Shown piece after piece: positions 44,601 to 47,600 of a DNA stretch of 64,000 nt; position 1 is the stretch's first letter; the number at the start of each line of letters is the position of its first letter. Position numbers: made by a program. Source of the stretch: an uncultured Verrucomicrobiae bacterium (GTDB lineage Bacteria; Verrucomicrobiota; Verrucomicrobiia; Chthoniobacterales; UBA10450); NCBI GenBank assembly GCA_963756875.1, contig CAVWPA010000003.1:224001-288000 (forward strand). The letters are read 5' to 3'.

Positions 44601-47600
44601 AAAGCGTCACTGGTCGTGAATCGATCGGCTGCGGGCATGAGCTTGAGCTGTCAAAGTTGCGGGAAGCTGACTCTTGTTCCAAAACCGAGTATGGCCTCGG
44701 CGGATAGGACCGCCCAATTACAGGAGATCCGGCGACGTCTGTCCGAAAACGAATCGCAGCGGACCGAGGTCACCGGGTATATCAATCAGCTCAGCATCCA
44801 GGTTCATCGCTGGCAACTGCGTCTGCAAACACTGAGCGAGCGCAAGCAGCAGCTCGAAAGCGAGCTCGCCTCGCTCGGAACATAGCGCGATTCGACGTTT
44901 CCTTTCCTGTAGCGGCCCCAAAAGCGTTCGGGGTCGCATTAACGGGACCACACCCGCCACGCGGGCAAGCTACGGTCGTCCCTCCAATTTTTGTTTTCGC
45001 GAATGCCACTTCGCGATACTTTTTCGCCGTGCGACGGTATCACGATTTGCTCCGCCTCGTCCTGGAACAAGGCCAGCCGCGCGCCGATCGCACCGGTACC
45101 GGCACACTATCGATCTTCGGCGCGCAGGCCCGCTTCGATTTACGGCCCGATGGCCCCGGATTTCCGCTGCTGACGACCAAGAAGTTGCACACGAAGTCGA
45201 TCATCTACGAGTTGCTTTGGTTTTTGCGGGGCGACACGAACATTCGTTACCTTAACGAGCACGGCGTCACCATTTGGGACGAATGGGCCGATGAAAACGG
45301 CGACCTCGGCCGCGTGTACGGGGCGCAATGGCGCGACTGGCACGGCCAAAACGGCGTGCGTGTCGATCAGATCGACAATGTCATCGCGCAAATCAAAAAT
45401 AATCCGTCGAGCCGGCGTTTGATCGTGAGCGCCTGGAACCCGGCGGAGATCGATAAGATGGCGCTGCCGCCCTGTCACGTGCTGTTTCAGTTTTATGTTT
45501 CCGCCGCGGCGGATTCGTCCGATGGCGAACAGAGAGGCGAGTTAAGCTGCCAGCTTTACCAGCGGAGCGCCGACTTGTTTCTCGGTGTGCCGTTCAATGT
45601 CGCGTCGTATGCACTTCTCACGATGATGGTCGCCCAGGTGTGCGATCTGCGCGCCGGCGATTTCGTTCACACTTTTGGCGACCTGCACCTCTATCAGAAC
45701 CATCTCGAACAGGCGCGCGAACAGCTCAGCCGCGATTGCCGTCCTTTGCCGCGCATGAAATTAAATCCGGCGATCAAGAACATCCGCGATTTTAAGTTCG
45801 AAGACTTTGAGTTGGTCGGGTACGATCCGCACCCGTCGATCAAGGCGCCGATCGCGGTGTAACGCCGCAAGGCGGCGAAACCTCCAAATCCCAAGCTCCA
45901 AACCCCAGAGAAATTCCAATCATCAATATCCAAACCCGATTTGGAGCTTGGGGCTTGGCGATTTAAGAAGACGCGCTCAACCCCGGATTCCACGCAAAAA
46001 GCGTCTGATGGCGGTTATCGCGACGAAGATATCGATTCTTCTTTCGGCTTTTCCGCTTTCCAGATCGGACCGCTCTTGGCAACCACCGGCGCTTCGCTTC
46101 CGGAATGGGCGACCGTGCTGGGAGCGAGCTTGAATATCGGCAGGATCGGATTCCCGTTGGCGTCCTTCTCGTACTCGACGCCCTCTTTTTGGATGAGCAG
46201 CCACGCTTTGAAATCGCCGCCCGGCCACTCACCAATCAGCACCTCCATCGGATAACTCTGTCCGCCGGTGACCTGGAATGTTTCGCCCACACCGAGCCCT
46301 TTGTACCAGCCCATCTTGGGATCCAGATGCAAGCCCGCGGTCGCGTAAAACTTCTGGGGCCCGTGCCCGCTCGGATTGGTCGATCCACAATCGAGCACCA
46401 CCTTTCCGTTAAATCGCACAACCAAAACGTCGTCCGCCATGCCAACGAAACGAAAAGTTCCGATCTCCGTCGGAATCACATTCCCTTTGTAATGAACCAC
46501 CCACATTTTGGGCTGAACACGGCCGCCCAGCCCGAACTCCAGCGGGCCCTGGTTCGCATTCATTTTCGGAATAAAGATCTGGGTGGTGAAAAGCGGGTTC
46601 GGTCCGACGAAATATTTTGAAAAGGTGGATTCGTTCCAGCCGTTAACGAACTTTGCCAGCTCGGCGGGATAGCCCTTGTCCTGATCGAGCTTCGACGGCG
46701 TCCCGTTCTTGAGTTGCTTCAAGTCGTAGAATTTCCCGACAAGCGCACCTCCGCCTTTGGATTCGCGAAATCCAAAAAACGGAACGGCCGCGCCGCCAGC
46801 GCCGGCGCCGCCACTCACTTCCATCCCGCCGGGATTGAAACTGACATTTACCCCGCCAGCACCGGCCATTTTCGTGGGCAACGCGTCCAGTTTGGGCATG
46901 GCAGGCATCTCCGGCAGCGCTACTTTGGCCAAACCGGTCGTCGTAATGCGCTTGACCGCTGCCGGCGCGCTCATCGTGCTTTGCTTTTTCGCCAGTTGCA
47001 CTTTGTGTTCGAGCGCGCGCGTGGACGGATTGGGCGACGGCGGCCCGCCCTTAAACGTCAGTTTGCGGTTCGCCTGGTAATGCTGCACCACCCAAAAAGC
47101 CGCACCCAGACCGAAAAGCAGGTGCACTGCGATGCTGATCATTAAGAATTTTCCGCTCGTGCGCTCCCATTGCCACCACTGCGCCAGGCGCGTTTTTCGT
47201 CGCGGCGTTCCCTCCACCGGCTCGACGAGGGTGCTCATTCTTCTTCGTTCACGGTGAACGTGACGTTGTCGATCTTGGCGACGGCCAAAGCGTCAAGCAC
47301 ATCGATTGTTCGACTGTACTTTGCCTGCTCGTCACTGATAATCGTGACCACTGTGGGAGTCTTCGCCTCGTCGGCATTCTGCTTCAACCGCATCAACGTC
47401 GCTTTCAGCTGCGGCAAATCCTTGCTCTGCGGCGAATCGAACGGCTCATCGTTCAGCGAAACTTCGCCCGCATCGGAAATGGTGATGATTTGTTCGTCGA
47501 CAAAATCGACCGATGTGGAAGTCGCCGCCGTCCCGGGTAACTGGGTATTCAATTCGTTCTCCACCTTCACCGCACCGGCCATAACCATGAAAAACAGCAT

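Follow-up and report, generated by a model that had tools for sequence, protein, structure and literature searches.

The thyA gene at positions 45029 to 45862 of the window (the whole 64,000-nucleotide stretch of DNA that was analyzed) raises the question of how its product is kept supplied with reduced folate. The encoded enzyme would convert dUMP and methylene-tetrahydrofolate to dTMP and dihydrofolate, and the de novo folate route (FolE, FolB, FolK, FolP, and FolC) would also end in dihydrofolate. Because both yield dihydrofolate, a dihydrofolate reductase is needed, and we infer that some NADPH-dependent reductase must regenerate tetrahydrofolate from it. ThyA is assumed to need FolA for this step, and the usual rule is that FolA-less bacteria use ThyX (PMC1971073, PMC11765544). 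The first-pass annotation had claimed that the host family uses ThyA without any known dihydrofolate reductase and had named a stand-alone RibD-C reductase related to Rv2671 as the best candidate for the missing step.

Two genome papers, on Ca. Udaeobacter and on Methylacidiphilum, had already touched briefly on the missing reductase. Willms et al. (2020) remarked on the absence of the reductase from one Ca. Udaeobacter MAG, for which they suggested salvage (PMC7343977). Hou et al. (2008) described folA as missing from Methylacidiphilum infernorum and proposed FolP as its substitute (PMC2474590, where the proposal was untested; repeated in PMC8779874). Neither of these remarks made a link to ThyA, and within the main texts of the open literature no paper was found on the family-wide ThyA-FolA pattern or on the RibD-C candidate. 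Judging from its taxon and breadth, the host family is probably that of Ca. Udaeobacter.

The thyA gene and its surroundings

The thyA reading frame, on the plus strand, was intact, started with GTG, and encoded 277 residues. Its classification as a classical thymidylate synthase followed from a score of 453 bits against NF002497 (cut-off, 327) and from the ThyA motifs; the score against TIGR03284 was 421 bits (cut-off, 108). The motifs were RR..SAWN (residue 129), PPCH (147), QRSAD (178), GVPFN (186), and HLYQNH (220), which make up the complete set of catalytic Cys (PPCH), Arg pair, QRSAD, PFN, and HxYxNH. A short insertion was present around residues 157 to 170, and identity to the ThyA of one family relative was 83%. 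As judged from its sequence, the protein is an ordinary, normal thymidylate synthase.

The gene was isolated, with dnaK and a small Zn-ribbon open reading frame (ORF) upstream and a palindrome and an opposite-strand gene downstream. The ORF 5' of thyA (44412 to 44885, plus strand), of interest for context only, encodes a Zn-ribbon (CxxC...CxxC) and a coiled coil, and its true start codon probably lies further inward. It had no Pfam match and was without reductase features; such an ORF was found at 14 of 30 family thyA loci and at 0 of 37 non-family loci. Directly 3' of thyA, a repeat search detected a 25-nt imperfect inverted repeat (45878 to 45964), which occupies the spot where folA stands in sister families. 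It belongs to a genome-wide repeat family, with 45 blastn matches in the source genome.

Extent of the dihydrofolate reductase gap

The survey covered an even draw of 121 genomes from the Chthoniobacterales family, 82 of them high quality; the tallies include three unpublished genomes (G002, G007, and G014), none of which carries a claim by itself. The source genome was 87.6% complete in 3 contigs, and 398 kb of the relative G040 was used as a proxy covering much of its assembly gap.

ThyA was detected in 112/121 family genomes (79/82 of high quality), and true FolA in 0/121, there being no full-length match to PF00186 (DHFR_1). Weak DHFR_1 matches, at an E value of about 1e-5 and spanning half of the profile, occurred in 2/121 genomes, and both were small RibD-C-type proteins rather than FolA. 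The earlier counts of ThyA in 23/25 relatives and FolA in 1/25, the latter a weak, RibD-like match, were thus reproduced at larger scale. In the source genome, DHFR_1 had no match at E≤1, and a profile made from the FolA sequences of 21 Verrucomicrobiota proteins and run with filters off gave no match (best E value, 0.64). A divergent FolA was rejected, as the same profile came up empty in the source genome, in the 398 kb of G040, and at 30 family thyA loci.

Other known routes were also searched for. ThyX (PF02511) was not found in the source genome, in the family genome G033, or in the G040 stretch, and the R67-type reductase DfrB (PF06442) had no match in the 87.6% complete source genome (best E value, 0.6). 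The pteridine reductase model NF006598, scored on at most 20 candidates per genome, was not exceeded at its cut-off in any of the 121 family genomes (best, 200 of 288 bits). The motif TGxxxRxG, which defines FolM/PTR1 (PMC1971073), was absent from the 30 best NF006598 family loci, all of FabG or glucose dehydrogenase types, and from the short-chain dehydrogenases/reductases (SDRs) of the source genome. FolC was present in 21/21 family genomes examined and carried no extra domain at any of these loci; the protein ended about 360 residues past GTNGK at 19/21 of them, with two deviating at 320 and 415. In the source genome, the longest ORF for FolP enters the FolP domain at residue 50, and FolP had no fused domain. 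A fused dihydropteroate reductase of the Helicobacter/halophile type was rejected, because no flavin-binding domain occurred on FolC (21 loci) or on FolP of the source genome. The earlier statements that the family lacks a pteridine-reductase-type FolM and that its FolC has no added domain therefore stood.

The folate pathway itself was retained. FolE (type IA) was present in 108/121 family genomes (79/82 of high quality), and FolP, FolK, and FolB were all found in the source genome. E. coli thymidine kinase (Tdk) had no match in the source genome or in the 398 kb of G040. The data confirm that the family-wide dihydrofolate reductase gap is real.

Loss of folA from the thyA-folA operon

The wider comparison used 221 Verrucomicrobiota genomes, 220 of them at least 90% complete. 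ThyA was present in 77/221, and when matched by genome, 71 of those 77 also had FolA. The six ThyA-positive, FolA-negative genomes comprised two of the host family and all four Methylacidiphilaceae. The assumption that ThyA needs FolA thus holds in most of the phylum, and one whole soil family breaks the rule. Across the phylum, FolA was lacking in 140/221 genomes.

Gene order was informative in the same respect. A folA gene lay within 1.5 kb of thyA at 27/29 non-family loci and at 0/30 family loci, and in the sister families of the order it stands directly or closely 3' of thyA. Because the sister families keep folA beside thyA, the host family must have lost it from an ancestral thyA-folA operon, which shows a true loss of the gene.

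Distribution and context of the stand-alone RibD-C protein

A stand-alone RibD-C orthologue of about 230 residues was found in 113/121 family genomes (81/82 of high quality), nearly always as a single copy, which extends the earlier count of 24/24 relatives with such a protein besides RibD. At 19/20 loci, the gene order was ClpB-MFS-TIM barrel-LPG synthase-reductase-SRPBCC-FabF-trmD-KH-rpsP-ffh; the twentieth locus was a RibD. In the loci examined, the gene never adjoined thyA or any fol gene. Other small RibD-C proteins were sporadic in the family. Matches to family proteins in the ESM Atlas had generic names only, and homologues carried the names Chthoniobacterales or Verrucomicrobiota.

In the source genome, a RibD_C domain search gave one match only, a complete RibD that keeps the equivalents of Lys152, Arg184, Asp200, Arg207, and Glu299. 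Since the host has this complete RibD, riboflavin reduction is already covered. The candidate gene was indeed absent from this assembly, as had been noted, yet its absence reflects an assembly gap. The source genome also lacked ATP synthase, purA, uppS, glyQS, valS, metG, folC, folE, accD, asd, trmD, rpsP, and ffh, and these missing genes cluster in the same region as the stand-alone RibD-C gene in relatives. It is the joint absence of these genes, trmD, rpsP, and ffh among them, that points to a gap.

In the phylum sample, the candidate profile had 10 matches, of which two (G261 and G295) were full RibD and were excluded, leaving 8. Orthologues occurred in four sister-family genomes (G125, G293, G209, and G233), all 4/4 of which also had RibD and a true FolA (E values, 1e-43 to 1e-46). 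Two of them, G209 and G233, are closed 0.9-Mb genomes of Ca. Xiphinematobacter endosymbionts that hold both FolA and the RibD-C orthologue. More distant copies were found in G200, alongside FolA, and in G124 and G128, which are ThyX users without FolA. In a tree, the family copies formed one clade with a stem of 0.55 and short tips, compared with a stem of 0.26 and longer tips for RibD. This contrast speaks weakly for the candidate, and its rates are only indicative, since 5 rows of the tree were duplicates and the genome sets were not matched; RibD identity within the family rows was 0.62. The tree and the distribution show that the stand-alone gene was inherited from before the loss of folA and is older than that loss.

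Two functional associations suggested by the neighborhood and the pathway were rejected. The TIM-barrel neighbor also adjoins the stand-alone gene in G209 and G233, but a dedicated two-gene module does not fit its occurrence in 116/221 phylum genomes, against 8/221 for the reductase. A FolE bypass, as Chlamydia has, was discarded as a role for RibD-C because FolE or FolE2 is present.

Sequence and predicted structure of the RibD-C protein

The best relative of the stand-alone protein was archaeal Rib7 (E value, 7e-31; Z score of the predicted model, 24.3), followed by Rv2671 at about 24% identity (E value, 2e-22; Z score, 22.2). The latter Z score was obtained against 4xt4, the Rv2671-dihydropteridine complex. 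The model, with a pLDDT of 77, gave Z scores of 20 to 22 against RibD and 13 to 14.5 against FolA. The caveat of the first-pass annotation that archaeal riboflavin reductases match better was thus borne out in both sequence and fold. No curated cut-off that was tried was reached: the protein scored 111 of 186 bits against TIGR01508 (Rib7) and 84 of 184, 76 of 226, and 73 of 274 bits against the NCBIfam models of the Rv2671 family (PRK14059). Of the asserted relation to Rv2671, the likeness in fold and residues held, whereas membership of its family did not.

Thr8, Asp32, Arg40, Thr52, Asp56, and Glu156 were invariant in 17/17 aligned stand-alone proteins. Thr8 corresponds to the Lys152 site of RibD, and Asp32 aligns with Asp33 of Rib7 and with the Asp of an Rv2671 helix. 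The catalytic Thr, Asp, Glu, and Gly-Gly, together with the 2-amino-specific Thr/Asn of Rib7/ArfC, were likewise present in 17/17. In yeast Rib7, activity requires the Thr, Asp, and Glu, and Thr instead of Lys marks a preference for the 2-amino substrate (PMC3631187). The DDPxLxxR loop reads DNVRLG[LIV]P in the family, with the loss of one phosphate-binding residue. The Arg207 site is Pro, Ser, or Ala (Pro, Gly, or Ser in most distant relatives), and the Arg184 equivalent is retained. By alignment, Rv2671 shows the same pattern, with Asn at the Lys152 site and no DDPxLxxR loop; the roles of its ring-binding and loop residues are here presumed. The residue pattern of the stand-alone protein fits a phosphate-free 2-amino-4-oxo-pyrimidine substrate, for example a dihydropterin or dihydrofolate. 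Asp32 and Thr8 would suit a Rib7 substrate equally well, and the pattern is compatible with a Rib7 reaction.

A proposed stand-in reductase and its alternatives

The reading that we prefer, at a probability of about 40%, is that the stand-alone RibD-C protein is an older reductase of pterin type whose dihydrofolate side activity allowed folA to be lost. In the ancestor of the order, RibD-C would have stood beside FolA with another pterin-related job. The protein would bind NADPH as Rib7 and RibD do, through the invariant Thr52 and Glu156-Gly-Gly, and would hold the 2-amino-4-oxo-pyrimidine ring with Asp32 and Thr8. Having shed one residue that binds the phosphate of the riboflavin precursor, it would pass hydride to the dihydropterin ring. 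Its activity on dihydrofolate, even if low as for Rv2671, would then have allowed soil cells that grow slowly to do without folA.

Its universal presence as a single copy, a DHFR-like fold, and Rv2671-like residues make the protein still the best named candidate for the missing dihydrofolate reductase, as the first-pass annotation had it. The supposition that its presence marks it as the replacement was not supported, the gene being older than the loss and found beside FolA in the 4/4 sister-family genomes that have it. Because the orthologues coexist there with true FolA and RibD, the main job of RibD-C is probably something else; this coexistence does not exclude dihydrofolate activity, since Rv2671 itself occurs alongside a normal DHFR. 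Further points against a simple replacement are the position of the gene away from thyA and fol genes, the scores below the Rv2671-family cut-offs, the closer likeness to archaeal Rib7, and the low activity of Rv2671. A second point against presence as a pointer comes from the Methylacidiphilaceae, which in 4/4 genomes have ThyA and neither FolA nor a stand-alone RibD-C, so that ThyA can run without RibD-C.

These same exceptions favor a reductase of another fold, a flavoprotein or an unannotated protein, perhaps common to the Methylacidiphilaceae and to the many FolA-less ThyX users of the phylum, with the role of RibD-C unrelated. We regard this as a close rival, only slightly less probable than the preferred reading. 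The six ThyA-positive, FolA-negative genomes fall in two families, one of them wholly without RibD-C; the FolA-less genomes that make up most of the phylum sample still need reduced folate; and the missing reductases of FolA-less bacteria are a recognized open problem (PMC1971073). The coexistence of RibD-C with FolA in sister families points the same way. Against such an enzyme, Pfam searches of 97 of the 213 proteins selected from the G040 stretch that the source genome lacks revealed no new reductase type, and the two FolA-less families may have arrived at different solutions. The lone nitroreductase-fold protein found in the source genome (C1:236187-236897) was rejected, as it is a homologue of the iodotyrosine deiodinase type.

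A stronger version of the preferred RibD-C reading, in which the Rib7-like protein was promoted to the sole, essential dihydrofolate reductase of this soil family, which ranks among the most abundant in soil, and the Methylacidiphilaceae, acidophilic methanotrophs of the phylum, independently use a further, undescribed enzyme class, appeared possible but on balance doubtful. If true, this reductase would be a natural full replacement of FolA and probably insensitive to trimethoprim. Ca. Udaeobacter increased in soil treated with several antibiotics together, trimethoprim among them (PMC7343977), and a reductase other than FolA might offer a reason for that gain.

An SDR without the FolM motif could also reduce dihydrofolate, one example being the sepiapterin-reductase-like SDR encoded with folE, PTPS, and phenylalanine hydroxylase. 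The family folE gene sits in an hppD-hmgA-folE-PTPS-SDR-phhA cluster, which is of the phenylalanine-catabolism and biopterin type. The host family has FolE of type IA, whereas G209, G125, and G251 use FolE2, and the SDR matches PRK07454 and the Chlorobium-type sepiapterin reductase 2bd0. The cluster SDR was present at only 11/21 folE loci, however, and sepiapterin reductases act on side-chain carbonyls, not on the ring. SDR-type dihydrofolate reductases are known (PMC1971073), but the best family matches to the pteridine reductase model were of the FabG and glucose dehydrogenase types described above, and we consider an SDR unlikely.

Moonlighting by the reductase half of bifunctional RibD, in both FolA-less families, is less likely again: no DHFR-fold protein other than RibD was found throughout the genomes of the two, but RibD keeps the riboflavin-type Lys and Arg, has Ala or Thr rather than Asp at the ring-binding site, and shows no change shared by the two families relative to FolA-positive relatives. 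Least credible is the absence of any dihydrofolate recycling, with reduced folates taken up from the soil community, as the salvage proposed for the reductase-less Ca. Udaeobacter MAG would imply (PMC7343977), because ThyA spends one reduced folate per dTMP, so that supply would have to equal the demand of DNA synthesis, and the de novo pathway, useless without a reductase, is kept almost universally.

The family offers a testable handle, with one cloneable candidate, on the identity of the dihydrofolate-reducing enzyme of bacteria that lack FolA, and the Methylacidiphilaceae, as a second family, offer an independent test of FolA-less ThyA.

Comparison with known systems

Enzymes of the FolM/PTR1 type and the Helicobacter-type dihydropteroate reductase would fill the same step, and neither was found in the searches made here. 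The Methylacidiphilaceae resemble the host family in that all four genomes have ThyA and that no FolA, ThyX, or pteridine reductase was found in them; they differ in having no stand-alone RibD-C and in using FolE2 instead of FolE.

The closest match of the candidate is archaeal and fungal Rib7 (ArfC; the DAROPP reductase of TIGR01508), with which it shares the equivalents of the Thr/Asn35-type residue, Asp33, Thr79, Asp83, Glu180, and Gly-Gly. It differs in its score below the Rib7 cut-off, in the replacement of DDP by DNV, DQM, or DRM, and in the loss of the Arg207/Lys/His site, and its host already owns a complete RibD.

With Rv2671 (RibD) of Mycobacterium tuberculosis, the candidate shares a stand-alone RibD-C fold that in Rv2671 has dihydrofolate reductase activity. 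Rv2671 has been called a DHFR (PMC12855090, PMC10777855), with an activity described as quite low and able to replace the normal DHFR, DfrA, only if over-expressed (PMC10812664). The two proteins are alike in Asn or Thr at the Lys152 site, in the ring-site Asp, in a changed DDPxLxxR loop, and in the same helical insertion. Both also occur beside a full RibD-type enzyme and, for the candidate in sister families, beside FolA. They differ in sequence, at the low identity given above and under all three PRK14059 cut-offs, and in their place in metabolism: Rv2671 is a back-up to DfrA and ThyX, whereas the RibD-C candidate would be the only reductase serving ThyA.

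Genomic surroundings of thyA

In the window, thyA (45029 to 45862, plus strand) and the ORF upstream of it were found to be flanked by two imperfect palindromes of CCAA-rich units, at 44326 to 44479 and, downstream of thyA, at 45878 to 45964. The downstream palindrome gave 45 blastn matches in the source genome and was assigned to a REP-like repeat family. The upstream ORF (44412 to 44885), which encodes a Zn ribbon and a coiled coil, had no match in a Pfam search and is family specific, being observed at 14 of 30 family loci but at none of 37 other loci. According to the ORF list, this region is immediately preceded by dnaK-groES-groEL (39328 to 44078, minus strand), and a further minus-strand run extends from 46015 to 55116, comprising what we take to be an S41 protease-like gene, TPR proteins, ExbB/TolQ, two ExbD-like genes, and a membrane protein.

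A large block, including ATP synthase, several tRNA synthetases, accBCD, folE, folC, fabG, trmD, and ffh, was absent from the source assembly, and gene absences there are not to be counted as losses. An iodotyrosine deiodinase homologue, common across the order, was located on contig C1 of the same genome (L375:1185-1874).

Thymidylate synthesis and folate reduction in other families

Among the 221 phylum-sample genomes, 27 had no match to either thymidylate synthase at the cutoffs used (ThyA, E ≤ 1e-20; ThyX, E ≤ 1e-8). At these thresholds, neither synthase was found in any of the 13 genomes of family f23, nor was FolA. Since ThyX of families f8 and f28 scored just 1e-9 to 1e-13, family f23 may possess a divergent ThyX below the threshold.

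In Methylacidiphilaceae (G159, G212, G230, and G251; loci L204 to L211), ThyA was present, and FolA, ThyX, pteridine reductase, and stand-alone RibD-C were all absent, making this a second, independent instance of ThyA without a known dihydrofolate reductase.

In the 0.9-Mb "Ca. Xiphinematobacter" genomes G209 and G233, the adjacent stand-alone RibD-C and TIM-barrel genes (L125:6655-8442 and L094, respectively) were both retained despite genome reduction, alongside FolA and RibD.

GTP cyclohydrolase I and the folE cluster

FolE type IA was the sole GTP cyclohydrolase I found in the window's family. It is housed in an hppD-hmgA-folE-double PTPS-(SDR)-phhA cluster (L229:9104-16811 in the family genome G033; also L264 to L283), and across 21 folE loci, FolE was accompanied by PTPS, HmgA, and HppD (20/21 each), PhhA (14/21), and SDR (11/21). 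This make-up points to a biopterin-type pathway. In contrast, the three non-family genomes tested (G209, G125, and G251) use FolE2, an apparent folE swap.
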